Origin: a virus
IMG/VR virus record: IMGVR_UViG_3300036827_000017
Coordinates: 1 to 55,793 of that record
Direction: 5' to 3' (one strand)
Length of the DNA: 55,793 bases
The notes under the pieces are model-generated. The model saw nothing but the letters and a program-made list of their open reading frames with translations. It was not told the origin of the DNA and ran no database searches. The position numbers and the translations under genes are program-made. The stretch's first letter is position 1. Each line of letters opens with the position of its first letter. Below, in pieces: positions 128 to 55,248 of this stretch.

Positions 128-397
128 GCTGACCCAAACGGTATCGTCATTGTTTTGGCAAACGATGTCGCCTTTACAGTAGTCGAAGCATATATTCCAG
201 TAACGAGTAATCTGACGCAGGCGTGGACCTATTAAAATAATATCAGCGAACGGCTTGGCAGCCTCGGCACTTGCCTCATCGTCCTCGTCGAATCTTGCCA
301 CAATCTCGATGGGATTGTTCGCAGTCTCACGCACAGAATCGACCATGCGAGCGAAAATTTCCGGACGTTTGCGGGACGGGAGAAGTAGGGAGATCAT
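1..397 (-). CDS. GT-A (family-2-like) glycosyltransferase with C-terminal Zn ribbon, 5' part; continues 55666->55245 (272 aa in total)
   Basis: ATG 397 overlaps stop of 394..1404 (ATGA); N-term ISLLLPSRKRPE beta1-type motif, NNDDT DxD-like; frame is continuous with ORF 55245..55778 through the repeat. Confidence 0.75.
   Translation of the reverse strand, partial: MISLLLPSRKRPEIFARMVDSVRETANNPIEIVARFDEDDEASAEAAKPFADIILIGPRLRQITRYWNICFDYCKGDIVCQNNDDTVWVSKGWDVMVEDAFAAVPDKIMLAHGSDVFGHGSNFGPHAFVSRK
230..242 (+). repeat. 13-bp dyad box TATTAAAATAATA
   Basis: exact; on the coding (-) strand ATT ATT TTA ATA = IILI, aa 53-56 of the junction-spanning GT. Confidence 0.9.
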
Positions 398-1404
398 CGC
401 CAATGCCCCTGGTGAAACACGGCCATCGCGCGCACCGCAGCCTCTTCGTAAGTCGGACGCACCGCCTCAACCGAGAATGACGCCTTGCCAATCTCGCGGC
501 TGCGAACGCTGCATCTTTGTGCAAACTCCATGTCCACAAAGCATTGCTTAATGAATCGACATACAGTTTCAAAGTTATCTGTGCATATGCCATTCAAGTT
601 GATGTAATCCTTATATGAAAGTCCTTCCTCGTCCCGCGCCACCACGGGCATTCCTGCGGCAACCGCTTCGGTAAACGAAGTACACAGCGGGCGCGCTCCG
701 CTGCGGTCAAGGTTCACAAACACACGATACTCGCTGCACATCTCGGCCATTTGCTTCGAGGTCTTGAAGTCTAGTGCGCCGTCGTGGTGGTGCATCTTCC
801 CCGGAAACCGTTCGCAGAGTTTTTCCCATATATCCACTCCGCATACCGTCTTGTCGGCAGGGCGCCAGATGTCCTTGCCCGCCAAAACGAATAGTGCTTC
901 CTCGCGCACTCCCGTCCACGGTCGCTCGAACCACCAGTCACCTACTGGCACAGCAGCAGTGTTCACATCGGGCAACGCAGTACGCCACGCATTCAAGTGC
1001 GAAGGCATCCCGAGCAGGACTGGGAAGTTTTCTATTTTCTTGAGGTAGTGATGGGGAAGGTAGGCCGGAGAGTCGTACCAGCAGACGAACACGATGATGG
1101 GACACTCGATGCGGGTACAGTGCTCGCGCCACGATGCAGCGTAGTTGAATGTTTCGACCGATTCGATCAGCAGATCGAACTTCGAGAAGTCGCATTCGCT
1201 GTAGGGCTTTTCCTCGAAATGAATGTCGAGGCCGAGTTCCTTCCACTCCGCGATGCGTCCGTTAGCCTTGGCGAGCGGCAGGATGCGCTTGTCCCATTTG
1301 TAGAGATCGTCGCAGGGCGGGCCGATGACGGTGAGGCCGGGAAAGATTGCAGCCATCTTTTCTACCAGTGCTCCGACTGTCGGGTACAAAAGAGCTGCCT
1401 TCAT
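394..1404 (-). CDS. GT-B (family-4-like) glycosyltransferase
   Basis: 336-aa ORF; C-terminal TSFTEAVAAGMPVVARDEEGL resembles the EX7E region of GT4 enzymes. Confidence 0.7.
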   Translation of the reverse strand: MKAALLYPTVGALVEKMAAIFPGLTVIGPPCDDLYKWDKRILPLAKANGRIAEWKELGLDIHFEEKPYSECDFSKFDLLIESVETFNYAASWREHCTRIECPIIVFVCWYDSPAYLPHHYLKKIENFPVLLGMPSHLNAWRTALPDVNTAAVPVGDWWFERPWTGVREEALFVLAGKDIWRPADKTVCGVDIWEKLCERFPGKMHHHDGALDFKTSKQMAEMCSEYRVFVNLDRSGARPLCTSFTEAVAAGMPVVARDEEGLSYKDYINLNGICTDNFETVCRFIKQCFVDMEFAQRCSVRSREIGKASFSVEAVRPTYEEAAVRAMAVFHQGHWR

Positions 1405-1550
1405 TGTGCGATTTTCTCAAATGTTCGCTTGACTGCCGGAACAGTTAGTTTGCTGATGCAAACCCCGCACAACTGAACGCCTCGGGCACGGATTACGCCT
1501 GCGTGCTCACGACAGTTGGAACAGGTTCCGATAAATGTCCGCTTGCTCAT
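1401..1550 (-). CDS. small Zn-ribbon protein (49 aa)
   Basis: start moved to ATG 1550 (ATGA overlap with stop of 1547..2287); CSNC...CGVC. Confidence 0.5.
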   Translation of the reverse strand: MSKRTFIGTCSNCREHAGVIRARGVQLCGVCISKLTVPAVKRTFEKIAQ

Positions 1551-2287
1551 GTTGTCACCTCGGGTAGTTGAAACTGGGCGAGTCCCCAATTCTCATCGTT
1601 CTTCATTCCGATAAACTTGGGCATGTCGCTGGAATGGATTCCGGTTCGCACCTTGTGCTCGCTGCGGTCGTGCTCTTGGTGGATGATCGGAATCGGTAGC
1701 TTCACATCATTAAGACCCGCTTTGTCCGCGTTCCAAAATAGCAGCGAATCAATGTGCGTGTAGCTCACCAGATCGAAATATCCTCGAAGTTGATGCCAGC
1801 GATTCGCGTGCATGAGTACAAAGTCTCCGGGTCCATCACAGACTTGTACCAGTCGTTCACCGTCCATGTCGTACCGTAGTGCCCGATAAAAACAGTTGTG
1901 ATCAAGCGGACCATTCATAAGACGTTGCCGCATTTCTTCGCTCAAGATGATGTCCGAGTTCAAGCATAGAATTAAATTCCCTGTCGCCCTGCGAATCCCC
2001 ACGTTCTTTGCGCGATACTCGAATACTGGGAATAATTCGTGGCCGGGTAGCGAGCGGTGAACTTCCGGGTACACGGTAATAACGCGCACGCCGCGATGTC
2101 GAATCTCGGTGTTGATGCGCGGGCGGTCGCCGAGCGGATTCCACTCGACGAAGATCACTTCGGCACCGAGCGGCATGATGCTTTCCAGAGAGCGGTTCAG
2201 GCGACCTACGAAGTCGCCGCCGTAGGTGTCATTGCGGCCTATTAAAATAATAGAGAGTCTCAACGGGCAAACTTTCGTTTGGCCCAC
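1547..2287 (-). CDS. GT-A (family-2-like) glycosyltransferase
   Basis: LSIILIGRNDTYGG, VEWNP, LNSDIIL blocks; start is either ATG 2287 or TTG 2263 (TTGA overlap with upstream stop). Confidence 0.65.
   Translation of the reverse strand: MGQTKVCPLRLSIILIGRNDTYGGDFVGRLNRSLESIMPLGAEVIFVEWNPLGDRPRINTEIRHRGVRVITVYPEVHRSLPGHELFPVFEYRAKNVGIRRATGNLILCLNSDIILSEEMRQRLMNGPLDHNCFYRALRYDMDGERLVQVCDGPGDFVLMHANRWHQLRGYFDLVSYTHIDSLLFWNADKAGLNDVKLPIPIIHQEHDRSEHKVRTGIHSSDMPKFIGMKNDENWGLAQFQLPEVTT
2240..2252 (+). repeat. 13-bp dyad box
   Basis: exact; encodes SIILIG at the N-terminus of GT 1547..2287, 8-20 nt past the upstream stop. Confidence 0.9.
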
Positions 2288-4233: not shown

Positions 4234-5265
4234 TTAGCCAATCCTCTTACACGCTTCTGCCCACAGCCGCATCCGGCGCGCCGTGTTCTTGAAAAACTGT
4301 GCGTCCTGCGATTCGATTAAATCCGCGAGCGACAAATACGCTTCGCCGAACGAACTGCCCGTCAGTTTATGCTCAACCAGTTTCGGAAGCAATTCTTCCA
4401 TGAGCCTGATCCCGAAAATTTCCTTCTCCGCGTCGGCCAGATAGTTATGCGAGTTCCGGCGATGCGTCGCCACGGGAGTTCCGAACCGCGCCGTCAATCC
4501 TAAATGCTTCGCGCACTTCAATGCGAAGTACCCTTGAAAAATATCCCCGTAGCGGTCAATCGGCGCTTCCATGCACACAAAATAATACGCGGCCATCGCG
4601 TCCCGCCGCACCGCCGTATTCTGCGAATTAATCGGGCACCAGGTATCGGGAGCCAGCACCGCGCTGCCCGTACACCGCGCCACCTGTCCGGGCCGCTGTA
4701 GCCACGTCAGAGCATCCACATCTGGAGCGCCCGTCCACATCCCCGCATTGATGACCACTTCCCCATCTTCCGAGTATTGCGTATGAACCTTGAACGATCG
4801 GCGCGCGTAGTACGGAAACCCGCGGGCGAAGATCTCCGGCCCCATGATTTTCAGCAGATTGCAGTTGTTGTACCAGCCATCCTCGGTGCTCACCAGTGGG
4901 TTATGCTTCCCGAGCGCCGCGATATGCGCCCCGATGAAGTCCTCGTTTAGTGGGCAGAAATTGTCATCGTCGATCGACACAATCATCTCGGCGCCTTCGG
5001 CCAGCGCCATCAGGTAGCCGATGTTGCGGCGATTGTCGGAGTTGAGGGGAATTTCTTCGAAGGGGAATCCTAGTTTTTCAAGAAACCTGACCTGCTCTCC
5101 AAGGTCGGGAATAGCGACGCATTTAGGCACCTTAAAGTTCGGCGTCTTCACGTCCGATATTAAAATAATACTGACTTCGCGTCCGTACTTGGCAAGATTG
5201 GCGAGGTACCCCTTCAGCAGTTCCGTGCAGTCGTTGATCGAGGTCAAAACAATCGCGGCCTTCAC
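4234..5265 (-). CDS. GT75 / reversibly-glycosylated-polypeptide-like protein (glycosyltransferase or UDP-arabinopyranose-mutase-like)
   Basis: GTG start; SIDDDNF, RGFPYYARR, GMWTGAPDVDALTW, PINSQNTAVRR blocks recalled from the RGP family. Confidence 0.55.
   Translation of the reverse strand: MKAAIVLTSINDCTELLKGYLANLAKYGREVSIILISDVKTPNFKVPKCVAIPDLGEQVRFLEKLGFPFEEIPLNSDNRRNIGYLMALAEGAEMIVSIDDDNFCPLNEDFIGAHIAALGKHNPLVSTEDGWYNNCNLLKIMGPEIFARGFPYYARRSFKVHTQYSEDGEVVINAGMWTGAPDVDALTWLQRPGQVARCTGSAVLAPDTWCPINSQNTAVRRDAMAAYYFVCMEAPIDRYGDIFQGYFALKCAKHLGLTARFGTPVATHRRNSHNYLADAEKEIFGIRLMEELLPKLVEHKLTGSSFGEAYLSLADLIESQDAQFFKNTARRMRLWAEACKRIG
5158..5170 (+). repeat. 13-bp dyad box
   Basis: exact; encodes IILI, aa 33-36 of 4234..5265. 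Confidence 0.9.
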
Positions 5266-5275: not shown

Positions 5276-5617
5276 TCATTCGACGATCTTCGCTTTCCCT
5301 CCACACATCCCGCAGTAATACCCTTTCTCGGCCCCGTGGATGCAGGTCGGTTTATCACCGTTACCGGCTCTTTTGCCAGCAGGCTCCCGCTTTCTAGTTC
5401 TAGCAGGCTTCCGTCCGCTAACCGCTGGTATCGCCGCACCCCGAGGCACGTCCACTGCTCCACGATCTGTACTTTCTCCATCTTTCCCCTCCAGTACCCT
5501 GTCTCGACACCACTGGCTGATATTCCCACCAGCCTGCGACTGTATCCACTCAAAGTCCGCTTGGCTCACGCTGAACGATAACTGCTTCCGCTCATCAAAC
5601 TGTAGTGGTCTTCCCAT
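5276..5617 (-). CDS. ribbon-helix-helix regulator with C-terminal Cys cluster
   Basis: start taken at ATG 5617 (M13 of track ORF); KQLSFSVSQADFEWIQSQAGGNISQWCRDRVLEG fits beta-alpha-alpha; CIHG...CGMCGG tail; palindrome directly upstream. Confidence 0.6.
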   Translation of the reverse strand: MGRPLQFDERKQLSFSVSQADFEWIQSQAGGNISQWCRDRVLEGKDGESTDRGAVDVPRGAAIPAVSGRKPARTRKREPAGKRAGNGDKPTCIHGAEKGYYCGMCGGKAKIVE

Positions 5618-5620
5618 CGC

Positions 5621-5643
5621 ACAGTAAATACATTTTATACTGT
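5621..5643. promoter_or_regulatory. 23-bp imperfect palindrome ACAGTAAATAC-A-TTTTATACTGT (operator candidate)
   Basis: starts 4 nt upstream of the RHH gene start 5617; a third ACAGTA at 5664..5669 and AGTAAATACATT repeated at 5675..5686. Confidence 0.5.
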
Positions 5644-5857
5644 TTAATGTCAAGTGAATTCGTACAGTATATTTAGTAAATACATTCTCAGTCTACTTGG
5701 GCATGTTTTGCCGCTGATTTCTACAAGGGTCTAGTGGAAGCGATCTTCCACGAACCCGCATAAACAGGCCGGGGGCTTGCCAATTCGGTCAAAGGGTACC
5801 CGCGAACGTGGCCGGCAGAGCCGCGGCCAGGTGCTCGCCAATCGCTTGCCGTTCGTG

Positions 5858-7661: not shown

Positions 7662-7674
7662 TATTATTTTAATA
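7662..7674 (-). repeat. 13-bp dyad box (plus strand reads TATTATTTTAATA)
   Basis: exact; intergenic, 4 nt after stop 7657, 17 nt before ATG 7692 with GAGGAG between. Confidence 0.9.
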
Positions 7675-8529: not shown

Positions 8530-8773
8530 CCCGCTTCTCGAAATATTCCCTCGTCTTGCGCGACTTTACCGTGCGCTCTTGCCTCAGAATTGCTTTACGG
8601 TGTTGTTTGAGCCTCACGATGATCTCAATCGCGTCGTAGAATGCCCGTTCTTCTTTGACCGTATGCGATTTTAGACGCCTATCGGCCTTCAGCACCCTCC
8701 AGATGGCATGTCCGATGCGAACGAGCCTTAAATAGCTTGCGTCATCTTCGTTGTAATCACACGGGCGGTTCAT
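8501..8773 (-). CDS. hypothetical protein (90 aa)
   Basis: start moved to ATG 8773 (AGGAG 7 nt upstream). Confidence 0.5.
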   Translation of the reverse strand: MNRPCDYNEDDASYLRLVRIGHAIWRVLKADRRLKSHTVKEERAFYDAIEIIVRLKQHRKAILRQERTVKSRKTREYFEKRATSSPQSAG

Positions 8774-8918
8774 TTTTATCTCCTGTCTCGTCGGCGAGCG
8801 TCCGAGCCAGCGACCAAAGGACTCCATCGAGGTTTGTAATCTCTTCCGTCGTCAGGCTGTCGCGCAGGTGCGGCATGATCTTCTGAATCAGCAATTCGTA
8901 AATGGCGTCGCGTTCCAT
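8757..8918 (-). CDS. hypothetical protein (53 aa), not in ORF track
   Basis: own translation MERDAIYELLIQKIMPHLRDSLTTEEITNLDG...; ATG directly follows a dyad box. Confidence 0.45.
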   Translation of the reverse strand: MERDAIYELLIQKIMPHLRDSLTTEEITNLDGVLWSLARTLADETGDKNEPPV

Positions 8919-8931
8919 TATTATTTTAATA
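8919..8931 (-). repeat. 13-bp dyad box
   Basis: exact; in the 22-nt spacer; on the gene strand TATTAAAATAATA is directly followed by ATG 8918. Confidence 0.9.
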
Positions 8932-9359: not shown

Positions 9360-9808
9360 GGCGTCCCCGATCGTTCCATCGTCGTGACGCGCACCCACGT
9401 CTTTGCGCTTGAATCCAGAAACTTACTCACCCACAACTGCGATACTTGGGCATCGTCGCAGTACACAGTGCCAGTCATTGAGTCAAGTAGCGCGCGTGCG
9501 AGTTTATCGAGGTCCGGCTTGGTCAACTTGTGCCGATTCTCCCTGTCCTTTTTCGGCGTAGACTTTGGCCGGGTGAAGTAGAAATGCGCCTCGACGCGCA
9601 CCGCCACCGTGACAGGAAAGCATCCCGGCAGTACCAGATCCCGCATGGCGCGCTCTGCGCACGCGGCTACCTCTTGACGCCACGGCTTGAGTTCTTTGTT
9701 GGTCGTGGTCAAGATCGGGCGCTTCCAGCCCTTCGGCGTGAAGGCCCGCATCGACCCCTGATGCTGGGGCTTGCCGAATACCTCGAACGTGATGATTGTC
9801 GACGTCAC
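9356..9808 (-). CDS. rusA: RusA-family Holliday junction resolvase
   Basis: PDLDKLARALLDSMTGTVYCDDAQV matches the RusA DxDxxxKxxxD...DD pattern. Confidence 0.85.
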   Translation of the reverse strand: MTSTIITFEVFGKPQHQGSMRAFTPKGWKRPILTTTNKELKPWRQEVAACAERAMRDLVLPGCFPVTVAVRVEAHFYFTRPKSTPKKDRENRHKLTKPDLDKLARALLDSMTGTVYCDDAQVSQLWVSKFLDSSAKTWVRVTTMERSGTP

Positions 9809-10089
9809 TCGTCGGCTTCCTTTTCCTTGTGGATTCGAACCTTGACCTTCTCGCCCTCGGGCACCAGCTCGATTTCGATGTCCTCGTACTTGTACGTCTT
9901 TTTGCCAAACTTGTGCATCAGGCTAATAAGCGCCGTCTTGAGTTCGACCTCCTGCTTAGTCATCTCCATGCGCTCATCGCGGCCTTGGGCATAGTCCAGT
10001 GCCGCTTGGTCGAGTTCACCGATCCGACGCGCTTCCATCCCTGGCAAATCCTTCTGCTTGGCCCGTTTTGTCGCTGCCGCTTTCGCCAT
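9805..10089 (-). CDS. hypothetical protein (94 aa)
   Basis: 4-nt overlap with upstream gene. Confidence 0.6.
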   Translation of the reverse strand: MAKAAATKRAKQKDLPGMEARRIGELDQAALDYAQGRDERMEMTKQEVELKTALISLMHKFGKKTYKYEDIEIELVPEGEKVKVRIHKEKEADE

Positions 10090-10098: not shown

Positions 10099-10530
10099 TT
10101 ATGCGTTCACCACGCTTTCAAATTTTAAAAGTCTGCGAATCTTACCCAAATCGTCGGTTACAAATCCAGCCATCTTCACCATCAAATCTGGCTCACGCAT
10201 CCCTGCCACATAGACTGCAACGATTTTCCCAGCACCGGCGGCCCAGCCCATCTCCATGCTGGCCGAAGGACCGCAGGGCATGACCATTACGCACGCATCA
10301 CACCACCGCAGCGCATCCATGTCGCGCTTAAATCCGCGTTCGGCGCATTGATGTTTCAAGCCTTGGAGATAGCCCGTAGGCGTCCATGTCTCCCATTTAG
10401 GGTCCACTTCCGACCAATGAAAGCCTTCGGAGTCTTTGAAGTCATAGACCTCGTGACCATCCTGCCGCAACGCGGCCACAACTTCAGGCTGAACGCTATT
10501 TCTCCATGAACTTGCAACGTATACCTTCAT
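10099..10530 (-). CDS. nucleoside 2-deoxyribosyltransferase-like protein
   Basis: start at ATG 10530 (ATGA overlap); MKVYVASSWRN ... SMEMGWAAGAGKIVAVY pattern; assignment tentative. Confidence 0.45.
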   Translation of the reverse strand: MKVYVASSWRNSVQPEVVAALRQDGHEVYDFKDSEGFHWSEVDPKWETWTPTGYLQGLKHQCAERGFKRDMDALRWCDACVMVMPCGPSASMEMGWAAGAGKIVAVYVAGMREPDLMVKMAGFVTDDLGKIRRLLKFESVVNA

Positions 10531-10862
10531 GCGTGCTTCGCCCCCTTTGATCCCCGGTGACACCCGTTTTGCCACGGTCCGCACAACGTCTGTAGATTCT
10601 CGATGTTATCGTGCCGCTTCTGCCCGTAGTTTTTGGCAACGTGGTGCATTTCCATACGCTCGAAGCTCACGTATTCGTGACATCCAAGGCATCGTCGACC
10701 GTCCCGCTCCCATACCTCCCACCGCCGATTACGGATGTCCACCCCCTTCAGGTACTCTCGCCCGTCCTGGTGCACCTGTGATCGACGGTCCAGGTACGTG
10801 CCGTCGCTGCGGCGCTGCGCGGTCAGCTCGCGGTCAACCCTGATGGATTCATGTTTTAGCAT
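10527..10862 (-). CDS. HNH endonuclease
   Basis: CLGCHEY...MEMHHV...HDNIENLQTLCGPWQNGCH; start ATG 10862 or 10910. Confidence 0.7.
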   Translation of the reverse strand: MLKHESIRVDRELTAQRRSDGTYLDRRSQVHQDGREYLKGVDIRNRRWEVWERDGRRCLGCHEYVSFERMEMHHVAKNYGQKRHDNIENLQTLCGPWQNGCHRGSKGAKHA

Positions 10863-11349
10863 TATCGCGCCTATTTCTCTGCTGCTGTGAACCTGTTGCC
10901 CATCGCACATTTCCTATCTCATAGTAACCGTTGTTGTTAATGCGATCAACGCTCAATCCGGGCGGGCGTTTGCCAAGCTCTTGCCAAAATTCTTCGAAGG
11001 ATTTGAAACGAAATTCAATACCTCGGCCTCCATAATTTTTATAACCCTGATTTTTCTTGTTCGTGCAACGATTCTTGGCAGATGTAAAAGCTCGGAATTC
11101 TGAGGTATATGACTGACCGTGTGTTATTGAACGACTGGCAACTGTCTTTGCCCATTCGATCAGAAAACAACCACAACTCTTCACGTGCCCATTTACAAGA
11201 TTTGTACCCCGAACATGCTTCAAGCCTCCGCAATCACAAGAGCAGAGCCAAATAACGCAATGTGGAGATTTTCCGCTAGGCCATCTGGCCGTAAGCCTAC
11301 CAAATCTTTCACCTGTACGATCTTTTATTGGCCCCCAACTGTGATTCAT
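10849..11349 (-). CDS. homing-endonuclease-like DNA-binding protein (YGGRGI module), paralogue of 2260..2700
   Basis: FTSAKNRCTNKKNQGYKNYGGRGIEF ... VDRINNNGYYEIGNVRWATGSQQQRN. Confidence 0.55.
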   Translation of the reverse strand: MNHSWGPIKDRTGERFGRLTARWPSGKSPHCVIWLCSCDCGGLKHVRGTNLVNGHVKSCGCFLIEWAKTVASRSITHGQSYTSEFRAFTSAKNRCTNKKNQGYKNYGGRGIEFRFKSFEEFWQELGKRPPGLSVDRINNNGYYEIGNVRWATGSQQQRNRRDNAKT

Positions 11350-11960: not shown

Positions 11961-11972
11961 ATTATTTTAATA
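11960..11972 (-). repeat. 13-bp dyad box
   Basis: exact; on the gene strand TATTAAAATAATATG, last A is the A of start codon 11960. Confidence 0.9.
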
Positions 11973-37680: not shown

Positions 37681-37684
37681 TCTC

Positions 37685-41754: not shown

Positions 41755-41755
41755 G

Positions 41756-43656: not shown

Positions 43657-43687
43657 GAAACTCTCCTTGTCCTGCTACTGAATCTCG

Positions 43688-44692
43688 TTAGCTCAAATTC
43701 GTGAGGGCTACGTTTGCGATCGGGCGATTACATCCGAGTTGGCAAATCAGGTGAATCCTCGCCGTGATGACATCCTGGTTCGAAGGCATGATCCACGGAG
43801 TCATGCGGAAGTAGGAACCCGTGTTATAAATCATCCATATGTACTTTGTATTCAGCAGATACCCCGTCCCTGCCGGGAAATGCTGGTCGGCAAGTACCAC
43901 GGCGTTCTTGAATCGCATGTGATACCGGAACGAGGTCTGAATCGGCGCCGTGTCCGCGTAATTGTCTGTCGCCCGGATGATGGTTGTCGAAGCCGCCGAA
44001 CTGGAGTTCTGCGTAAACTGCGCTTCGAACTTGGCGAAGTCCGTATTATTTAATATCAGCAGGTTGGGTTCATCGTACCCATAAGTCGCCAGGAAATATG
44101 CAGTCAGCAGTTTCGCCGGGGTCAGCGAGCTAGCAATCGACTGGTTCGCTTGCGGTTGCCAGAACGTGTTCGTCGAGCGGTTGATGCCCGCAATCGTGTT
44201 CGTGGTGGACAGCACCCATGCGCTGATCGAGTCAAGGTCGGTCGCCGAATTGAAGGGCGAGTTCCCCGCGACCGCTTCGGCCAGCATGTCCAGCATCGAG
44301 CCTGCCGCCGCCTGCATGTAGGTCTTTACCAGATCGAGGCCCACCGGCCCGCCGCGGCCAATCACAATGTCCATCACGGGCAGCGTCACGGCTTGGAAGT
44401 AGCCGCGCCACACCTGGTCAGCGGGCTGGATGGCGTCAATCGCCGAAGTCGGCAATAGCTGGTCGCCCCAGTAGGAACCGCGCGTGGTGATCTTGGTAGT
44501 CAGCAAGGGGTAGACGATTTCGGACCCCGCGTTATAGCGTTTTGCATACTGATTCAAATAAGAAAACGTCGGAGAAGGCTGGAAAACCAGATCAGCCACT
44601 TTTGGAAATATCATTTTTTGTGCAATGGAGTTAAGTGTATTAACAAGTAATGCTGATGGCTGATTAACTCCAAGTCCGACTGTCATTGCCAT
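43688..44692 (-). CDS. major capsid protein candidate (334 aa)
   Basis: gene order terminase-portal-scaffold-this gene, and size; no signature verified. Confidence 0.55.
   Translation of the reverse strand: MAMTVGLGVNQPSALLVNTLNSIAQKMIFPKVADLVFQPSPTFSYLNQYAKRYNAGSEIVYPLLTTKITTRGSYWGDQLLPTSAIDAIQPADQVWRGYFQAVTLPVMDIVIGRGGPVGLDLVKTYMQAAAGSMLDMLAEAVAGNSPFNSATDLDSISAWVLSTTNTIAGINRSTNTFWQPQANQSIASSLTPAKLLTAYFLATYGYDEPNLLILNNTDFAKFEAQFTQNSSSAASTTIIRATDNYADTAPIQTSFRYHMRFKNAVVLADQHFPAGTGYLLNTKYIWMIYNTGSYFRMTPWIMPSNQDVITARIHLICQLGCNRPIANVALTNLS
44044..44055 (-). repeat. box-like element, arms TATTA/TAATA with 2-bp spacer
   Basis: TATTATTTAATA inside the capsid candidate (LILNN); could be chance. Confidence 0.3.
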
Positions 44693-44710
44693 TTTCTTAT
44701 CTCCTCAAAA

Positions 44711-45211
44711 TTAGCAGGCGATGCCACGTAAAATTCTTTTGACATCTACCCTCTGATGCGGGCATTCCTTGTTCGTGCCCTTCGCACAATTGCAATTGAA
44801 ACACAAGAGTTGGAAGCGATCTTTCGGATACCCATTCTTTTTGAGCCATCGGTGCATACTAGAGCCGCCTCTTCCAATTGTTCGGCGGTGAGCACTACCG
44901 TCTCCGTGAATATGGTCAATGGTCAAAAACTCTGGTGTATCTTCTCCGCAACACTCACACCTATTTCCATACGCAGCAAACGCCTGCGCTCGAAGTTTGT
45001 CGTTATGAATTTTGGTGTGCTTCCGTCGATAAGCCAAGACGACTACCTTTCCAAGTTTGGCTTCGTACTTTTTAACTCGCGCCCTACAAATTTCCTTGTT
45101 CTCTTGAAAGTATTTCTTTGCCTTCGCGCGAACCACTTCACGATTCTTAAGGTAGTAAGCCTTGTGGTATTTCGAGTTCGCTTCTTTATCTATCAGTGAC
45201 ATTGTGAGCAT
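44711..45211 (-). CDS. HNH endonuclease (free-standing, between scaffold and capsid genes)
   Basis: CECCGED...TIDHIHGDGS...LLCFNCNCAKG; ATG 45202 (GGAGG 9 nt upstream) may be the real start. Confidence 0.85.
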   Translation of the reverse strand: MLTMSLIDKEANSKYHKAYYLKNREVVRAKAKKYFQENKEICRARVKKYEAKLGKVVVLAYRRKHTKIHNDKLRAQAFAAYGNRCECCGEDTPEFLTIDHIHGDGSAHRRTIGRGGSSMHRWLKKNGYPKDRFQLLCFNCNCAKGTNKECPHQRVDVKRILRGIAC

Positions 45212-45220
45212 CCTCCTCGG

Positions 45221-45228
45221 ATGCCCAA
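45221..45228 (+). repeat. fifth ATGCCCAACAAG box
   Basis: 12-nt identity with the 6393 copy; sits in the 22-nt gap just upstream of the HNH gene 44711..45211. Confidence 0.5.
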
Positions 45229-45233
45229 CAAGT

Positions 45234-46076
45234 TTACATCAAGCCCGGACCCATTTGCTCGATCATTGCTCGCAATTCAGGGTCTTTAATCGCGTCGCCG
45301 TACAAATCGCCCAGCACGTCCGTCTCAGGCCCGACCTTGCGCGGTTGCGCTGCCGGCCCTTGCCCGATCCCCGACACTCCTGGAGGCGTGACGCGCGCGG
45401 CCATCGCTTCCATGCGGCCTTCTTCGCGGCCCTTTTCGATGGCTTCCTTGCGTGCCTCTTCCATGCGGTCGGCTTCCGACATCTTGTTCCATGCCTCGCG
45501 GATCGACGGCATCCCGTGACGGTCCACCAGCTTGTTTTCCTGAGCAAATTTCAGGATTTCATCGCGGGTCGGCTTCTTATCGCGCTTGCCGAAGTTTAGG
45601 CCATCGTATTCGCGGTCCCAGCGGTCTTGTGCCCACACGGTTGCGGCCTGGGTTACGGTGCCCAGCACGGTCTTGAGTTGGTTCGTCAGATCGTCGATTT
45701 TCTTGTCGCGGGCATCGAACTGTGTTTTTACCGGAGCAAGCCACGGATCGGCGAACGGGTCGGCGCCGGGTTCGGGTTGGCGTGTCGTCGCTGTTTTGCG
45801 GGCTTCTTCGGCGGCTGCATACGCCTGCTGCGCTTTCTGCGCCAAGTCCACGATGTTCTGCTGCCGGGTGTTGAGTTCGGTTTCCTTGGCTTCGACGCCC
45901 TTGATGCGCTCCGATAAGGTGCTACGCTCTGCGGCATTTAACTGACGGAGTGAGCCAAGAGGAATCTGCTGGTCGCCAATCGCGATCGGCGTATTGTCCG
46001 GGTACTCGGTCGCTGACTCCAAGAATTTCTTGATCGCGTCGACACTCACCGGACACCTCCCCAGGCATTTCCGCAC
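45234..46076 (-). CDS. scaffolding protein candidate (280 aa)
   Basis: charged, helical, E/K/A/R-rich; sits between portal and capsid. Confidence 0.55.
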   Translation of the reverse strand: MRKCLGRCPVSVDAIKKFLESATEYPDNTPIAIGDQQIPLGSLRQLNAAERSTLSERIKGVEAKETELNTRQQNIVDLAQKAQQAYAAAEEARKTATTRQPEPGADPFADPWLAPVKTQFDARDKKIDDLTNQLKTVLGTVTQAATVWAQDRWDREYDGLNFGKRDKKPTRDEILKFAQENKLVDRHGMPSIREAWNKMSEADRMEEARKEAIEKGREEGRMEAMAARVTPPGVSGIGQGPAAQPRKVGPETDVLGDLYGDAIKDPELRAMIEQMGPGLM

Positions 46077-46210
46077 GCATTACACGCATATCCGTTCTTC
46101 ACCGCTACAGTGGACGTGCTCTTGCACTTCGGGCATGGCCCAGCACTCGCTGGGGAAGGCACATGCGGCGTTCCCGTGCCACTTGGTCGCCATTTTCCTT
46201 GTTTTCCCAT
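46046..46210 (-). CDS. stand-alone Zn-ribbon protein (54 aa)
   Basis: start at M30 of track ORF; CPKCKSTSTVAVKNGYACNACG, same module as the C-termini of two GT genes. Confidence 0.5.
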   Translation of the reverse strand: MGKQGKWRPSGTGTPHVPSPASAGPCPKCKSTSTVAVKNGYACNACGNAWGGVR

Positions 46211-46226
46211 AAAATCAATTCTCCTT

Positions 46227-46682
46227 TTAGGCGTGTCGGTGACGCCTTGGAAGTCCGTTCCTGTACCTTCCAATTCCCTGCTCGCGCTCTTTTGCAAATC
46301 TTGTATATTGCCCCTCAGACATCAACATCCGGTTGTAGCGGAGTGGAGGGAATATCTTATGGAATCTGAGATGATCTTGAGCCTCTACCTTCTTCACATG
46401 AAGGTACGGGTACATAGAAGAAAGGAATTTGAGAGCGTCAACTCGCCTATCTATCAGAAGTTCGTAACATTCTTGCCACGTCCCTCCCTTGCGCCTCGTT
46501 AGCTTCACTATCGAATAGATTCCTTCTAGGGAAAGAAATTCTCTTATTTCGTTTAGAACTTTCTCTCCGCGCTTTCCTGCTTGGGTAATCTTCGCGTTGA
46601 TACCAACAGAACGGTCAAATCTGTTCTTGCGAATGTTGCCTTCGCCGTCAAAGAAACCCGCTATGTAGGCCCAGTTAATCAT
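46227..46682 (-). CDS. LAGLIDADG homing endonuclease
   Basis: WAYIAGFFDGEGNI motif. Confidence 0.8.
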   Translation of the reverse strand: MINWAYIAGFFDGEGNIRKNRFDRSVGINAKITQAGKRGEKVLNEIREFLSLEGIYSIVKLTRRKGGTWQECYELLIDRRVDALKFLSSMYPYLHVKKVEAQDHLRFHKIFPPLRYNRMLMSEGQYTRFAKEREQGIGRYRNGLPRRHRHA

Positions 46683-47095
46683 GTCGTTGGCTGACCTGGA
46701 TCTCCGCTTGGCGGCTGCCCTTGCTGAACCGCCGAAAACGAAATTGGCTGTGAACTGCTATCGCTATTCTTTACTACCTCTCCGACATTCGAAGCCTGTT
46801 GAGCTTCCTTTATCGAGCGCGAAAGCGCCTTCATCGTTGCGCTGATCTGGTTTGCCACGTTCGGAAGGGTCTGAAACGTCTTGACGAACAGCACCCCGAG
46901 CATCTGGTTCACCGATTCCAGTTGCCGGAGCACCATTGAAGGGTCGGCACCTTGTAACGCTGCCGATTGCTCCGAAAAATCCTGTCCGGGATTCGTCGAG
47001 GCTCGATTCGTCAAAGCGCCGAGAATGGTCCCGAGCATCCCGCCACCTTGCGGCGGGGCACCGCCACCCCCGAGCGGATTGGGAGGTGTCGCCAC
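46679..47095 (-). CDS. hypothetical head-module protein (138 aa)
   Basis: GTG start; Gly/Pro-rich ends. Confidence 0.55.
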   Translation of the reverse strand: MATPPNPLGGGGAPPQGGGMLGTILGALTNRASTNPGQDFSEQSAALQGADPSMVLRQLESVNQMLGVLFVKTFQTLPNVANQISATMKALSRSIKEAQQASNVGEVVKNSDSSSQPISFSAVQQGQPPSGDPGQPTT

Positions 47096-47100
47096 TCAAG

Positions 47101-47283
47101 TTATTCCTTAGACGCTGGGCCGATATTGCGCGGCTTCGCGTCCTTCGGCATAACACCCATCGGATCGTTCGCTTCCGTGATGTCTGTAACCCCACCGTAG
47201 TCAATCGAACCTTCGGCGGAACCCTTGGGAGGCTGTGTCTGGATTGGTGAATCGAAATTTGATAGCAAATCTTTCTTACTCAT
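47101..47283 (-). CDS. hypothetical protein (60 aa)
   Basis: AGGAG 8 nt before ATG 47283; ATGA overlap with upstream stop. Confidence 0.5.
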   Translation of the reverse strand: MSKKDLLSNFDSPIQTQPPKGSAEGSIDYGGVTDITEANDPMGVMPKDAKPRNIGPASKE

Positions 47284-47474
47284 GGTTTTCTCCTGTTGCT
47301 GGGCAGAAACCCGACGCGATCCTCGGGCATGGTGGTGTAAAGAACTTCGCCCCAGTCCGCATCGCCCGCGATGATGTCCTCGTTTTGCGGGGAGCATCGT
47401 GTCGAGTTCAGAGCAACCTCGATGTTTCGGTTGTTCTGAGCTACGTCGATTTCGTCGTTGCGACCATTTTTCAT
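47280..47474 (-). CDS. hypothetical protein (64 aa)
   Basis: GGAG before ATG 47474; GTG 47510 alternative. Confidence 0.45.
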   Translation of the reverse strand: MKNGRNDEIDVAQNNRNIEVALNSTRCSPQNEDIIAGDADWGEVLYTTMPEDRVGFLPSNRRKP

Positions 47475-47526
47475 GTCCGTTCTCCAGAGAAGCAGGGCAA
47501 GATGTTTCACGCATCTCGCCCCGCAT

Positions 47527-47539
47527 TATTAAAATAATA
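47527..47539 (+). repeat. 13-bp dyad box
   Basis: exact; non-coding, about 50 nt upstream (gene strand) of ATG 47474. Confidence 0.9.
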
Positions 47540-50562: not shown

Positions 50563-50976
50563 TTACGCCTCCGGTTGGCGTCGCTTCAATTCGTCGGAAA
50601 GCATGGCAGCAATCCTGCGTTTTTGCAATTTCTTTTCCATGTCAGCGAGTTTGTCGTTGTCCAGTGTCGAACCCGAGGGCCGCACAGTCGCCTCTGGCTC
50701 AGCCTGTTTGCGGATCGGGTCGGCGGTAATCACTTCCTTGGTCGGCTGCGCTTCTGGAATCGCTTTGAAAACTTCGCCAAACGATCCGAGGTGTGTGCGC
50801 AAAACCAATTCTTGCGATCGGCTATCCCAGTCTTTAAGCAATGTCACTGGCTGGTCGATCACATCGATGAGATCACCGCGAATGCGGATTTCACCGCCAG
50901 CTTGACGGCAGAGCGCGGCAATGATCTTTACCAGGTACGATTCGAGGCTTGCGTTTCCGCGTGAATACGCAGGCAT
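50563..50976 (-). CDS. hypothetical protein (137 aa)
   Basis: GGAGG 7 nt before ATG; dyad box fills the spacer upstream. Confidence 0.6.
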   Translation of the reverse strand: MPAYSRGNASLESYLVKIIAALCRQAGGEIRIRGDLIDVIDQPVTLLKDWDSRSQELVLRTHLGSFGEVFKAIPEAQPTKEVITADPIRKQAEPEATVRPSGSTLDNDKLADMEKKLQKRRIAAMLSDELKRRQPEA

Positions 50977-50989
50977 TTTGTGCCTCCAT

Positions 50990-51002
50990 TATTATTTTAA
51001 TA
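50990..51002 (-). repeat. 13-bp dyad box
   Basis: exact; abuts the terL stop (51003); on the gene strand followed by ATGGAGGCACAAA-ATG(50976). Confidence 0.9.
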
Positions 51003-53652: not shown

Positions 53653-53883
53653 TTGCATCATTGCAAATCAAAGGACACCTATGTTAGCTTGGGCATCACT
53701 ATGAGAGGAACGCAAACCATCGGCATCTGTGCGATTCACTCGCGGCCCTTCCCGTGTTTAAGTTGTAGGGGCGCTAAAGGTGGCCGGGTATCGAGTCCTG
53801 CGAAGTCGCGGGCTAATAAAGCTAAGAGCCGCCACGCCGCGATGATGCGCTGGCATCGCAAAGAGACGAAGGTATTAAAATAA
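53653..53883 (+). CDS. basic Cys-containing small protein (76 aa; ATG 53701 alternative)
   Basis: its last codons and stop (GTA TTA AAA TAA) lie inside a dyad box. Confidence 0.45.
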   Translation: MHHCKSKDTYVSLGITMRGTQTIGICAIHSRPFPCLSCRGAKGGRVSSPAKSRANKAKSRHAAMMRWHRKETKVLK

Positions 53884-53885
53884 TA
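53873..53885 (+). repeat. 13-bp dyad box
   Basis: exact; TATTAAAATAATATG; contains the upstream stop TAA and the A of start 53885. Confidence 0.9.
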
Positions 53886-54289
53886 TGCCCGGTTTTTGTG
53901 AATCTTGTGTTAGCGGACAGCACGCAGCGTGCAACGATCCTCAGTGTAGGTGCTTGTGCAGACCTGCCGTGCAAGAGTTAATGAAGAAACAACCTCCGCT
54001 ATTTCCTACTACTGGGACAGGAACTCTCGTATGTCCAGAATGCACTCATAAGCCCCGCATCGGAGATACTTTCTGTCGCTTCGATGGCAACAAGCTAATT
54101 CCCGGTAAAATATGCTGTTGCGGGAAGGCAGGCGAACCAGACGACGTGTTCTGCGGCGGCTGCGGCCAGAAGTTTGGAGAACCCGTTGTTCCGATACCGG
54201 AACTGAGTGAGGAAGAGATCACGGCACTGGAAGCCAAAGCTCGTCAGCGACCGTCAGACGTGGAAGCGCCTATCAACGAGGTTCACTAG
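53885..54289 (+). CDS. multi-Zn-ribbon protein (134 aa)
   Basis: CESC...CNDPQCRC, CPEC...C, CCCG...CGGCG; start codon is fused to a dyad box. Confidence 0.6.
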   Translation: MPGFCESCVSGQHAACNDPQCRCLCRPAVQELMKKQPPLFPTTGTGTLVCPECTHKPRIGDTFCRFDGNKLIPGKICCCGKAGEPDDVFCGGCGQKFGEPVVPIPELSEEEITALEAKARQRPSDVEAPINEVH

Positions 54290-54589
54290 ATGGCAACCGT
54301 CAGCAAAAACTTGTACGATCGGCTTATCGCTAACAGGCCATTCAAGCTATCTGCCGAGGAAGTGAGTTACGAGGAAGCTAAAAAGCGTTCCAAGTATTCC
54401 TTTCTACAAAAAGACGATCCTCGCTGTGAGACTTGCATTCACTTCTTCACGCGCAAAGTTGATGGACACAATACCTGTGAAATTTTCAGGCCAGAGGATG
54501 ATGAGTCTGTCGAGCCAGAATACGTTTGTGATTTCCATAGCATTGATGGGAAAGAGTTCCCGCTATATTGCTATGACCTAGAGGACTAA
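54290..54589 (+). CDS. hypothetical protein (99 aa)
   Basis: abuts the previous stop. Confidence 0.6.
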   Translation: MATVSKNLYDRLIANRPFKLSAEEVSYEEAKKRSKYSFLQKDDPRCETCIHFFTRKVDGHNTCEIFRPEDDESVEPEYVCDFHSIDGKEFPLYCYDLED

Positions 54590-55248
54590 ACCCAAAGGCA
54601 AGACTTCTGAATAGGATGTTCCGCGAACAGAACGCCGCAGCCGTTGCAGTGTGTCCCAATTTCGACCAGCACCGTTGATTCACTTCCACACTTAGGACAG
54701 GGCGCACCCTGATTCTTCTTCGTATTAAAATAATAATGGTACATGACTCGCGGGATGTAGTGCTCCGTCTTGACCTTGCCGCGCATTCGGTCGGACCATC
54801 GCTTGTCCTCGCCGTGCCCGCCTTCCATCGGTTCGAGTAGCGCGAGTTCGCGGCGCATGGAATTTAGATGCGAAATATCCCGGTAGTAGCCGTTTACATC
54901 CTGATACCAGCCATTGAATTGCAGAGAGTGAAAGGTTTTTTCAGATAGCGGGCGTCCGTCGATATAGCATTGAAGCTGGAATCCGATCTGATCCACACCG
55001 TCTAGTAGCGGCAGAATTGTGGACACGTAATCGTCTGGCACCATGTCATCGTCATCGACGAAGTTGATATATTGCGCCCGCGAGGAACGCCTGAGCATAT
55101 CCCTATTTTCTCCGAGGGTATACTGCGGATCGCAGGTGCGAATCAGGATGTTTACTTGATCGTTTCTCTGAGGCTCAAGCACTTTGAGGAGTTCGTGAAT
55201 AAACTTCTGGCGCGTGGACATCGTGAGAATGAGGATGTCCCACGTCAT
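54586..55248 (-). CDS. GT-A (family-2-like) glycosyltransferase with C-terminal Zn ribbon
   Basis: start at ATG 55248 (ATGA overlap); WDILILTMSTR, NFVDDDDMV DxD; C-term CPKCGSESTVLVEIGTHCNGCG. Confidence 0.7.
   Translation of the reverse strand: MTWDILILTMSTRQKFIHELLKVLEPQRNDQVNILIRTCDPQYTLGENRDMLRRSSRAQYINFVDDDDMVPDDYVSTILPLLDGVDQIGFQLQCYIDGRPLSEKTFHSLQFNGWYQDVNGYYRDISHLNSMRRELALLEPMEGGHGEDKRWSDRMRGKVKTEHYIPRVMYHYYFNTKKNQGAPCPKCGSESTVLVEIGTHCNGCGVLFAEHPIQKSCLWV
54723..54735 (+). repeat. 13-bp dyad box
   Basis: exact; coding strand ATG TAC CAT TAT TAT TTT AAT ACG = MYHYYFNT, between the GT domain and Zn ribbon of 54586..55248. Confidence 0.9.

Follow-up and report, generated by a model that had tools for sequence, protein, structure and literature searches.

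The window, the whole 55,793-nucleotide stretch of DNA that was analysed, holds the complete circular genome of a soil phage (55,666 bp), in which the AT-only 13-mer TATTATTTTAATA, here called the box, occurs in 17 exact copies, with 0.03 expected for its 11-mer core. All exact copies were confirmed at the positions given by the first-pass annotation and, together with two imperfect ("best-effort") copies, they amount to a density of about 1 per 3 kb. Upon counting mismatches over the whole genome, we obtained one 1-mismatch copy (41461), no 2-mismatch copy and a 3-mismatch class at chance level (6 independent sites versus 5.9 expected), so that these counts reveal no degenerate tail of box copies in the window. 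No conservation was found around the copies beyond the 13 positions, which carry ~27 bits of information. A host genome of 10 Mb with like composition is calculated to contain the box ~0.1 times, so that the box would be able to mark phage DNA uniquely. Its arms, TATTA and TAATA, flank a TTT centre and form an imperfect inverted repeat.

Eight exact copies lie within ORFs, all on the minus strand. Six are read as ATT ATT TTA ATA (IILI), namely at 230-242 (codons 55-58, ADIILIG, of a GT2-like and Zn-ribbon gene that spans the contig junction and starts at 403), at 2240-2252 (in the GT2-like gene 1547-2263, as codons 5-8 of M R L S I I L I G R N D), at 5158-5170 (in 4234-5265, a glycosyltransferase gene of the RGP family, at about codons 27-30), and in the signal-peptide cores at 28283-28295 (MQKRLLIIILIM..., gene 27254-28315), 30982-30994 (MKRLIIILILL..., gene 28324-31008) and 33293-33305 (MVKRLIIILILM..., gene 31775-33322). 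The other two are read as TAT TAT TTT AAT (YYFN), at 18568-18580 (in gene 18467-18589 for a 40-aa membrane protein, as codons 4-7, MKRYYFNN) and at 54723-54735 (codons 179-182, YHYYFNT, of the GT2-like and Zn-ribbon gene 54586-55269); an ATG precedes both of these boxes by exactly 6 nt. While these readings agree with the first-pass annotation, some of its details hold only in part: a GT beta1-type strand fits the copy at 2240 but not those at codon 55 (230) and about codon 27 (5158), and among the glycosyltransferase assignments the RGP-family protein stands, the rest having only sub-threshold Pfam GT2 matches. The statement that genes always carry the orientation lacking stop codons is approximate only, because one of the frames in the T-rich orientation contains a stop as well, and the opposite orientation offers an open frame, IKII, of which one relative (MSDIKIIT) and both imperfect copies in the window make use. 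The three signal peptides look genuine (SD, K/R n-region, hydrophobic core, AQQ end), and outside its signal peptide the 31775-33322 protein is unrelated to those of 27254-28315 and 28324-31008. Their flanks are only ~50-65% identical while the box is identical at 13/13 positions, as had been noticed for 27254-28315 and 28324-31008 from the diverged sequence around it.

Codon usage and box-less homologues together support a constraint at the DNA level. In a table of 15,597 codons of this genome (GC3 0.596), TTA is the rarest Leu codon (7.0% of Leu codons) and ATA the rarest Ile codon (13.2% of Ile codons), bearing out the expectation that both are disfavoured, and ATT, TAT, TTT and AAT are not rare. 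The probability of IILI being written with the box codons is 0.0014, and the box encodes all six IILI and both YYFN peptides of the genome. With TTA and ATA rare here and no homologues found that write the same peptides in freely chosen codons, the proposal that coding sequence had to accommodate the box as a piece of DNA stands, and box-less homologues show the ancestral states. At 230, the homologue in L041 reads GCA GTG GTA ATT ATT (AVVII; VVII to IILI in the box lineage), and the c662 allele also has no box; at 2240, L036 reads ACC GTG GTG CTC TCC (TVVLS to SIILI); at 5158, box-less homologues read ATA TTC CTT ATC, ATC TAC CTG ATT and similar (I[F/Y]LI to IILI). Box-less homologues of 28324-31008 (L028, L029 and L031) carry ordinary signal peptides, and at 18568 the c801 and L051 orthologues retain the box while adjacent codons vary at third positions. 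At 54723, box-less homologues read CTA/CTT/TTT followed by TAC CAC TAC TAT/TAC TTC CGA (YHYYFR), and these six codons have become TAC CAT TAT TAT TTT AAT.

The last site had been suggested to contain an internal start or promoter, with the ATG at 54741 yielding a separate Zn-ribbon product. Suggestively, this ATG was derived together with the box, since Leu or Phe occupies this position in box-less homologues; the same ATG-N6-box arrangement serves gene 18467-18589 as its true start, and one relative has ATG-N5-box at a true start. We nevertheless consider an internal start or promoter improbable: the 54741 ATG has no SD before it, the glycosyltransferase and Zn-ribbon ORF is continuous in all homologues, the fused paralogue across the contig junction has no internal box at that point, and Leu to Met is a conservative change.

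The two imperfect copies show the same rewriting in the middle of genes. The one-mismatch copy at 41461-41473 (plus strand; TATTAAAATAAGA on the gene strand) occupies codons 94-98 (AIKIR) of the late gene 40492-41754, where box-less relatives have GCG ACT AAG ATT CGA (ATKIR); five substitutions lead toward the box, an exact match is blocked by the Arg codon alone, and the copy is conserved in L001. In the major capsid gene 43688-44692, a 12-mer variant at 44044-44055 (plus strand; TATTAAATAATA on the gene strand) occupies codons 213-217 (LILNN), and CTG ATT CTG AAC AAC in all box-less relatives has become CTG ATA TTA AAT AAT in the box lineage, by five changes that are all synonymous and lead to the rarest codons; in this frame the full 13-mer would introduce a stop codon. 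Judging from these alignments, the box lineage reached the 13-mer in genes by synonymous and conservative changes.

Nine exact copies lie at gene junctions; these, and the even spacing along the genome, were missed by the earlier emphasis on gene interiors. The intergenic box at 7662-7674 (plus strand) is followed by ATGAGGAGCGTAAGTCT (SD) and an ATG at 7692, an architecture also present in c662, c801, L051 and L052. The copy at 50990-51002 (plus) directly follows the large-terminase stop (51003) and precedes ATGGAGGCACAAA (SD), after which 50563-50976 begins at a conserved ATG (50976); box-less relatives have no spacer after the large terminase, in c662 an insertion of 1 kb lies upstream of the box, and in L003/c801 an HNH gene has been inserted behind box and SD. 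At 8919-8931 (plus), the box abuts the ATG (8918) of the minus-strand gene 8757-8918, its A-rich strand reading into the ATG, and it is retained in 5 genomes, though c801 and L052 have a different downstream gene. The copy at 11960-11972 (plus) overlaps the ATG of gene 11349-11960 by 1 nt, and the box or its 12-mer variant abuts the start of this gene in every box-bearing genome. The copy at 24163-24175 (minus) takes up all the space from the stop of 23316-24161 to the lysozyme start codon (ATG at 24175), and, in a divergent intergenic region, that at 53873-53885 (minus) overlaps the ATG (53885) from which 53885-54289 is read on the plus strand. The box at 37668-37680 (plus) separates the stop of 37685-40495 from the start codon (ATG, 37667) of 37272-37667 and is a ~16-nt insertion, because box-less L017 has TAGGATGGTG there and L029 an ATGA overlap. 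The copy at 16872-16884 (minus) lies in a 345-nt spacer between the ERF gene and a PAPS-reductase-family gene, directly after a long GC hairpin (CCTGGGAG...CTCCCAGG), and the same hairpin and box are found in L051 and L054; at the 5' end of gene 47101-47526, the copy at 47527-47539 (minus) is preceded by an 8-bp hairpin. The non-coding copies use both orientations (3 versus 6), and orientation does not track gene direction.

Comparison with relatives indicates that these copies are derived and maintained. The box is confined to a small clade of uncultivated relatives, in which it is always exact, and it co-occurs with a distinct early-gene module that is missing from box-less relatives; relatives with ~80% identical proteins and no box have other codons or residues at the same positions. 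Between box-bearing relatives, the box is invariant while its flanks diverge by about 16-25%, and the 13-mer is accompanied by a 12-mer variant whose centre is shorter. Intergenic copies arose as insertions of 13-16 nt that now separate once-coupled genes, and the box was created independently many times, by junction insertion and by codon rewriting. Given these short insertions, one could regard the box as functionless, i.e., as the scar of a small mobile element, an assembly artefact, or a by-product of mutation or gene conversion. The comparative data come close to refuting this: coding copies arose by in-frame point substitutions, several purely synonymous, exact copies recur in independently assembled genomes from different samples, the flanks of the box have no common sequence, and 13 nt are too short for gene conversion between diverged flanks. 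Since copies were made both by small junction insertions and by protein re-coding, we regard the box as a strongly selected DNA recognition site, presumably a cis-acting one in double-stranded DNA.

The box is a genome-wide, evenly spaced and orientation-free site. The 19 sites (17 exact and two imperfect) are far more even than chance (CV 0.42, P=6e-5), with a largest gap of 5.6 kb (P=0.002), both imperfect copies fall within the sole long stretch free of exact boxes, and every transcription unit contains the box. At the same time, a start codon lies within 30 nt of 13 of the 17 exact copies, compared with 8.6% of the genome (P=2e-11), so that the ribosome footprint of a start codon covers these copies. 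This placement could point to a role in mRNA, with the box as an unstructured AU-rich tract that surrounds the start codon and promotes initiation via S1 binding, or as a site where an RNase E-like enzyme or a phage endoribonuclease processes the transcript; six genes have no properly spaced SD and carry the box instead, and orientation tracks context, the A-rich strand facing the ATG where the box abuts it and the T-rich (U-rich) strand being used where an SD leader comes after. We think such a role very unlikely, as the RNAs of the two orientations differ (UUU versus AAA centre) and yet all 13 positions are invariant, AU-richness by itself requires no exact sequence, the copies at codons 55, 94, 179 and 213 are distant from any start, the box has no Rfam match and folding next to it is not unusual.

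A second possibility is that the box is a factor-dependent promoter and as such the entire recognition element for host RNA polymerase with a phage sigma-like or activator protein, or for an unrecognised phage polymerase, with transcripts that start at the box edge as leaderless or minimal-leader mRNAs, in the manner of T4 late TATAAATA or phiEco32 gp36. The non-coding copies lead either straight into an ATG or, across 2-5 nt, into an SD and a start, as expected of a minimal leader if transcription begins at the box edge. The AT-only box contains -10-like hexamers (TATTAT, TAAAAT), several of which were flagged in a promoter scan; its high information content resembles that of phage-polymerase promoters, its even spacing along the 29-kb late operon resembles phage promoter arrays, and the hairpins before the boxes at 16872 and 47527 resemble a terminator-then-promoter arrangement. 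Arrays of the T7 class and T4 late type indeed place exact AT-rich or long motifs every few kilobases, sometimes inside upstream coding sequence. They are, however, strictly co-oriented, lie upstream of the start and come with an encoded cognate polymerase or sigma factor, none of which holds for the box: its orientation relative to the downstream gene is mixed among the non-coding copies, and no RNA polymerase or sigma gene was found in the phage genome. Furthermore, -35-like conservation upstream of the box is absent, the varying box-to-start distance (-1, 0 or +2 nt) is awkward for leaderless mRNAs, and at least 7 copies lie 9-21 nt downstream of well-supported starts (signal peptides, N-terminal strands), which a transcript beginning at the box would miss. 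We therefore hold a promoter to be unlikely.

Equally doubtful is a landmark for DNA metabolism unconnected with gene expression, such as a nick or cleavage site of a homing-type nuclease (T5-type nicked genomes), a hotspot of recombination or replication priming, a site at which a DNA-coating clamp is loaded, or a "self" tag that, like Chi, protects against a nuclease, with junction and N-terminal positions merely reflecting where 13 AT bases are tolerated. Even spacing and independence of orientation would fit, the best-effort mid-gene copies (capsid and 40492-41754) lie exactly where the largest gap would otherwise be, and, as junction copies were inserted into previously overlapping gene pairs, an abutting start codon would follow automatically. 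The genome also has four HNH genes, one LAGLIDADG gene, ERF and RusA; an HNH gene comes after 11349-11960 in the window, L051 and L052, and homology between relatives often breaks at boxes. Yet such mosaic breakpoints are equally common at gene borders without a box, neither a nuclease nor a clamp has been tied to the box, and the LAGLIDADG gene is missing from other box-bearing genomes. By our count, coding copies are still strongly biased to the first 10 codons (four of ~eight independent events versus ~5% expected by position). Known Chi and nick sites are strand-specific, and the box is not.

We suggest, with a probability of roughly 40%, that the 13-mer is the recognition sequence, or multi-copy operator, of a sequence-specific, probably dimeric, phage-encoded DNA-binding protein. 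Such a protein would bind at many places along the genome and control transcription locally, as a roadblock, by silencing or by acting over a few kilobases, while box orientation would be set by secondary effects on translation (A-rich strand to the ATG, T-rich strand with an SD leader). The imperfect inverted repeat and the use of both orientations fit symmetric recognition of duplex DNA and argue against an RNA signal, the even spacing of the 19 sites would suit a factor that reaches only a limited distance from each site, and we count for the same reading the exactness of 17/17 window copies and of all copies in relatives, the information content, the placement near start codons, the presence in every transcription unit, and the derived box state at coding and junction sites, taken as selection. 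The early region has two near-consensus sigma-70-type promoter matches and no phage polymerase or sigma factor was found, which points to a regulator acting on host RNA polymerase more than to a new polymerase. Against the operator stand the short inverted repeat (5-bp arms) with its invariant asymmetric TTT centre, unusual for a dimer site, and the 12-mer variant alongside the 13-mer. The mid-gene copies in capsid and 40492-41754, far from starts, are not explained by a purely gene-start regulatory role, and, since neither integrase nor immunity repressor was detected in the phage genome, a lysogeny-type silencing role is unsupported.

No box-binding protein was identified. A weak candidate is the all-helical 203-aa product of 11349-11960 (minus strand), which belongs to a family of only 11 sequences. 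The best PDB fold matches of its AF2 model (pLDDT 83) are Spo0J/ParB at non-significant E values of 2-4, and it has no Pfam support; a 44%-identical homologue on a box-less 3.7-kb contig counts against it.

Among known systems, the stoperators of Cluster A mycobacteriophages (L5, Bxb1) are 13-bp sites present in 20-30 copies per roughly 50-kb genome, in all modules and mostly away from promoters, and are specific to the phage lineage and its repressor (PMC6550527, PMC9283540); they block elongation (PMC6550527). The box resembles them in length, multiple copies, genome-wide distribution and lineage specificity. Stoperators are, however, asymmetric, transcription-oriented and variable around a consensus, whereas the box has mixed orientation, is exact and AT-only, and lies about half in coding sequence; they also serve a monomeric immunity repressor in temperate phages with an integrase or parABS, of which repressor and integrase were not found here. 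The conserved inverted repeats of phiC31 are a comparable multi-copy operator. The OB operator of IncP plasmid RK2 occurs in about a dozen copies on a replicon of roughly 60 kb. Like the box, OB is a 13-bp inverted repeat, and it lies at varied distances from promoters. Its ligand KorB, a ParB-family dimer, loads at OB sites, slides and silences over kilobase distances (PMC11790492), and such sliding silencing would explain a need for even coverage. In contrast to the AT-only box, OB is a perfect GC-containing palindrome (core TTTAGCGGCTAAA), and the replicon here is a phage whose ParB/KorB resemblance is limited to the non-significant fold matches.

In Cluster K mycobacteriophages, the start-associated sequence (SAS) is an exact-ish 13-bp motif of unknown function with 11-19 copies a few nt from start codons, missing from the host genome and conserved before unrelated genes (PMC3203893). 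The SAS contains the SD, always precedes the start in a single orientation and is confined to the non-structural half of the genome, whereas the box has no SD, occurs in both orientations and within coding sequence, and covers the whole genome. The uptake sequences of Pasteurellaceae and Neisseria (USS/DUS) are evenly spaced and occur in both orientations. These short exact motifs lie in coding regions, in particular frames and at poorly conserved residues, and inflate the frequency of the encoded peptides (PMC2817400). They differ in belonging to bacterial chromosomes, with thousands of copies and biased DNA uptake, a step that a phage does not have. While USS tend toward preferred codons, the box forces the rarest ones, pointing to selection and not to drift or drive.

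The box, an AT-only 13-mer (TATTATTTTAATA) that is T-rich or A-rich according to the strand read, occurs in 17 exact copies in a genome of 54% G+C, against 0.03 expected (11-mer core), and two further imperfect copies lie in the same 55.7 kb. A single site departs from it at one base and no site at two, the three-mismatch class stands at chance level, and no conservation was found outside the 13 bases, within which the arms TATTA and TAATA form inverted repeats flanking an invariant TTT center. A literature search for the 13-mer returned only chance eukaryotic matches. Eight copies lie within ORFs, in the frames reported by the first-pass annotation, and its guess that the codons involved would be disfavored was borne out by the codon table (GC3 0.60), in which TTA makes up 7.0% of Leu codons and ATA 13.2% of Ile codons, each the smallest share for its amino acid. 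The probability that an IILI peptide is encoded as ATT ATT TTA ATA is 0.0014, yet the box encodes every IILI (six) and every YYFN (two) peptide of the proteome. The proposal that the copies at 230, 2240 and 5158 encode beta1-type strands held for 2240, which is N-terminal, but not for 230, at codon 55, or 5158, at about codon 27. Likewise, the statement that coding copies take the orientation lacking stop codons had to be amended, as the T-rich orientation too has one frame with a stop, and a single frame (IKII) is open in the A-rich orientation, a frame used by one relative (MSDIKIIT) and by both imperfect copies.

For comparison, about 50 related loci were fetched from IMG/VR and metagenome assemblies; no relatives were found among GenBank phages or GTDB genomes, and an ERF-based search gave no result. 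The box-bearing clade is small and comprises the window phage, IMG/VR contigs 3300046662_000014 and 3300036801_000089, the short IMG/VR contigs L001, L003, L004 and L143, and the further assemblies L051, L052 and L054, all with the 13-mer, while the short assembly L055 has a 12-mer variant only. Throughout the clade the box is exact, and the tallies are 11 copies over 41 kb, 10 over 27.6 kb, 7 over 20.7 kb and 4 over 14 kb; box-less relatives, with portal, terminase and capsid ~75-91% identical, contain zero copies and no other over-represented word. In an IMG/VR scan for the box plus CS, this clade alone had more than one copy per locus at this G+C among the matches listed, where the one other two-copy locus was AT-rich and chance AT-rich matches predominate.

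These comparisons indicate that the box is derived and selected, with the ancestral state seen at each site in box-less relatives. At 54723, TAC CAC TAC TAT/TAC TTC CGA of the box-less relatives became TAC CAT TAT TAT TTT AAT in the box lineage, where an upstream Leu/Phe has changed to Met as well. The first-pass annotation had raised the possibility of an internal start at 54741, which is compatible with the other models and which we regard as quite improbable. VVII became IILI at 230, TVVLS became SIILI at 2240, and an I-F/Y-L-I stretch became IILI at 5158, and three ordinary signal peptides acquired RL(L)IIILI cores; of the secreted proteins bearing these, two are paralogues and the third has only the signal peptide in common with them. 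Because the coding copies arose through substitution, a mobile-element scar was rejected. Junction copies, by the same comparison, arose by insertion: TAG-GAGA-box-ATG stands at 37668 in place of TAGGATGGTG or an ATGA overlap, and at 50990 a terminase stop that formerly overlapped the Shine-Dalgarno (SD) sequence of the next gene is now followed by box, SD and ATG. A test of divergence in flanks versus box was biased by copy selection and therefore not relied on. The terminase/next-gene junction also shows an insertion polymorphism among orthologues of 50990, where the box, the SD and codons 1-4 (MPAY) have been taken over by an HNH gene in L003 (1186-1856) and in the related locus c801 (around 50019), and where ~1 kb was inserted between terminase stop and box in another related locus, c662 (27500-28576). 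Just 3' of the window box, a small hairpin (AGGCA-loop-TGCCT, 50971-50985) overlaps both the SD of gene 50563-50976 and its start codon and could occlude the ribosome-binding site. The box as a marker of recombination junctions was kept as a minor rival only: homology between relatives often ends at boxes, but equally often at box-free gene borders.

The sole long stretch without an exact box, from 37668 to 47527 (9.9 kb, late genes), contains both imperfect copies. In gene 40492-41754, GCG ACT AAG ATT CGA (ATKIR) became GCT ATT AAA ATA AGA (AIKIR) through five changes toward the box, and the Arg codon alone blocks an exact match. In the major capsid gene, CTG ATT CTG AAC AAC, present in all box-less relatives, became CTG ATA TTA AAT AAT, with all five changes synonymous and directed toward one motif. 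The result is TATTAAATAATA, the nearest sequence that the capsid peptide permits, because the 13-mer would make a stop codon there. This 12-mer, with a center one base shorter, is also found at box positions in two distant clade members, L054 (3786-3797) and L055 (595-606 and 1694-1705), the former carrying both forms. As judged from sequence comparison, the selection signal on the box is exceptionally clean, with DNA-level selection prevailing unusually clearly over codon choice and sometimes over amino-acid choice, in a setting where close relatives display the ancestral states. For annotation this carries a warning, as islands of rare codons in phage genes, or unusual surroundings of their start codons, can reflect embedded cis-elements.

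Box centers lie at most 30 nt from a start codon in 13 of 17 cases, compared with 8.6% of the genome (P = 2e-11), and by our own count the first ten codons hold 4 of ~8 independent coding events. Boxes are present in 6/6 transcription units. The 19 sites (17 exact, 2 imperfect) are spaced much more evenly than under random placement (CV 0.42 versus 0.93, P = 6e-5), with a largest gap of 5.6 kb (P = 0.002); the gene-start control covers the 17 exact copies alone, for which the CV is 0.63 versus a mean of 0.91 for 17 random gene starts (P = 0.05). Non-coding copies have the T-rich strand as sense in three cases and the A-rich strand in six, independent of gene direction, and coding copies occur in both orientations across the clade. 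Where the box abuts an ATG, the A-rich strand is sense (6/6), and where a box is followed by an SD leader the sense strand is usually the T-rich one (7662 with its orthologues, and L054), with 50990 as the exception. We infer that the primary function is indifferent to orientation and that orientation is chosen for translation. The use of both strands and the fixation of all 13 positions also make a role at the RNA level highly improbable.

An exact site of ~27 bits, used in both orientations and with partial dyad symmetry, suggests that a specific protein recognizes it as duplex DNA. By our calculation, a host genome of 10 Mb with the same composition would contain it ~0.1 times by chance, so that the box would uniquely mark phage DNA. 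We suggest, with a probability of roughly 0.4, that a phage regulator uses the box as a multi-copy operator. Such a putative regulator would act from each box, locally or across a few kb, which would explain both the gene-start bias and a requirement that coverage be even. Stoperators (PMC6550527, PMC9283540) and KorB-OB (PMC11790492) provide precedents. The alternative of a factor-dependent promoter would accord with the layouts in which the box precedes an SD or an ATG, but we consider it unlikely given the mixed orientation and the copies 9-21 nt 3' of supported start codons. Promoters of a phage polymerase or phage sigma factor are co-oriented and 5' of the gene, whereas the box is mixed with some copies 3' of starts, and no cognate RNA polymerase or sigma gene was recognized (Pfam/PHROGs, ~75 of 82 ORFs). 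A role as a landmark for DNA metabolism (in nicking, recombination, priming or protection) would be consistent with the spacing and with the large number of nuclease genes, but we hold it to be doubtful. Also rather unlikely is that a lytic phage needs the box every few kb as a "self" tag, which a phage protein of limited range (such as a sliding clamp or DNA coat) would load onto or recognize, or which would involve a nuclease attenuator, in the service of the whole chromosome and not of particular genes; if so, the need for full coverage would be strong enough to impose rare codons even on the major capsid protein. A need for even spacing, if real, would imply a mechanism acting over kb distances on phage DNA, a kind of which bacteria and phages offer few known examples.

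Multi-copy phage motifs of 13 bp are already known as stoperators (PMC6550527, PMC9283540) and the Cluster K SAS (PMC3203893), as are motifs accommodated within coding sequence, namely uptake sequences (PMC2817400). Cluster A stoperators resemble the box in forming many dispersed 13-bp sites genome-wide, but mostly keep one orientation relative to transcription, whereas the box is mixed, and they go with an immunity repressor, whose binding blocks transcription elongation, plus an integrase or parABS; integrase, ParA, repressor, sigma factor and RNA polymerase were not recognized here by Pfam/PHROGs in ~75 of the 82 called ORFs, a scan that divergent proteins could escape. Operators of ParB/KorB (parS, OB) are perfect or near-perfect palindromes of 13-16 bp on replicons that encode a ParB-family CTPase/HTH protein, while the box is symmetric only in its 5-bp arms and asymmetric in its TTT center. 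The Cluster K SAS lies 3-7 bp 5' of starts in one orientation and includes the SD, whereas the box lacks an SD, has eight copies within ORFs and is mixed in orientation. DNA uptake sequences are high-copy in the chromosome of a competent bacterium, whereas the replicon here is a phage with portal, terminase and capsid genes. As the box departs from each of these families in a defining feature (orientation, symmetry, start position or replicon type), it belongs to none of them. The 13-mer offers a clean handle on a putative new system by which phages of an uncultivated soil clade recognize DNA.

The all-or-none presence of the box among relatives permits phylogenetic profiling for the cognate protein. 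The start codon of gene 11349-11960 bears a box or 12-mer in every genome that has both gene and motif. Its product belongs to a family of 11 members among 5.8 billion proteins and is predicted with good confidence to be all-helical; it has no Pfam match (ParB/KorB included) and no PDB sequence match, and its top PDB fold matches, to Spo0J/ParB, are non-significant (E 2.4-6, TM 0.32-0.46). A 44%-identical homologue is encoded on a box-less 3.7-kb contig, and we treat this protein as a box-binding factor only as a lead. A second candidate is the 94-aa protein of 9805-10089 (-), present in six genomes with the 13-mer or 12-mer (window, c662, c801, L051, L052 and L055) and in no box-less locus fetched, nor on L054, a contig of just 5.7 kb. 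Other possible DNA binders are 5276-5653 (a ribbon-helix-helix-like fold plus Zn ribbon, read from sequence), 12656-13318 (HTH_36) and 13722-14057 (two phage zinc-finger repeats), and several early proteins of 170-230 aa have no annotation in Pfam/PHROGs. The LAGLIDADG gene 46227-46682, found in this genome alone among the relatives fetched, was rejected as the factor because other box-bearing genomes lack it.

The first and last 127 bases of the window (1-127 and 55667-55793) are an exact direct repeat, typical of assembly overlap, which indicates that the genome is complete, circular or circularly permuted, and 55,666 bp long, and the ORFs at the window ends (2-403 and 55245-55793) form one gene for a GT2-like protein with a Zn ribbon. 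The phage is tailed, with a P22/SU10-type portal, large terminase and major capsid protein, and encodes ERF, RusA, an HTH_36 replication-type protein and lysozyme, as well as five homing-endonuclease-type genes (four HNH, one LAGLIDADG), including 10527-11349, 18813-19274, 22888-23319 and 46227-46682. A large auxiliary set of unusual sugar and sulfur genes (19688-24161, +; 15957-16766, -; 54586-5653, -, across the junction) encodes a glycosyltransferase-sulfotransferase fusion, APS kinase, a PAPS-reductase-family protein, a radical-SAM/B12 enzyme, an RGP-type glycosyltransferase and GT2-like proteins, two of them with Zn ribbons, which suggests that the phage specifies a sulfated glycan or a pathway for modifying DNA or protein; a lipoprotein-like protein and a TylF-type methyltransferase also belong to it. 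A malectin-domain protein followed by three secreted proteins occupies 25921-33322 (-). The secreted proteins of 353 and 894 aa share an N-terminal module of ~115 aa (68% identical) and differ in their C-termini, box-less relatives have only this module in common with them, and they are probably host-recognition proteins. Two near-consensus sigma-70-type promoters, at 19472-19444 (-) (TTGACA-17-TATTGT), where the leftward early operon begins, and at 13438-13409 (-) (TTGACA-18-TATGAT), suggest that canonical promoters and SD sequences operate in the host.

Several readings of the box were rejected. As a host sigma-70 promoter, it shows no -35 conservation, and promoter-like matches are not enriched; no known RNA family or tRNA was found near the boxes. 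As the U-tract of a terminator, it has a GC-rich hairpin before it at three sites only (16872, 47527 and, in antisense, 50990), and the folding energy of the upstream sequence does not differ from background. The 345-nt non-coding spacer 16767-17111, unusually long, follows the ERF gene and contains a long GC-rich hairpin (CCTGGGAG...CTCCCAGG) with a box immediately after it, and this hairpin-plus-box unit recurs in L051 and, with another stem interior, in L054.
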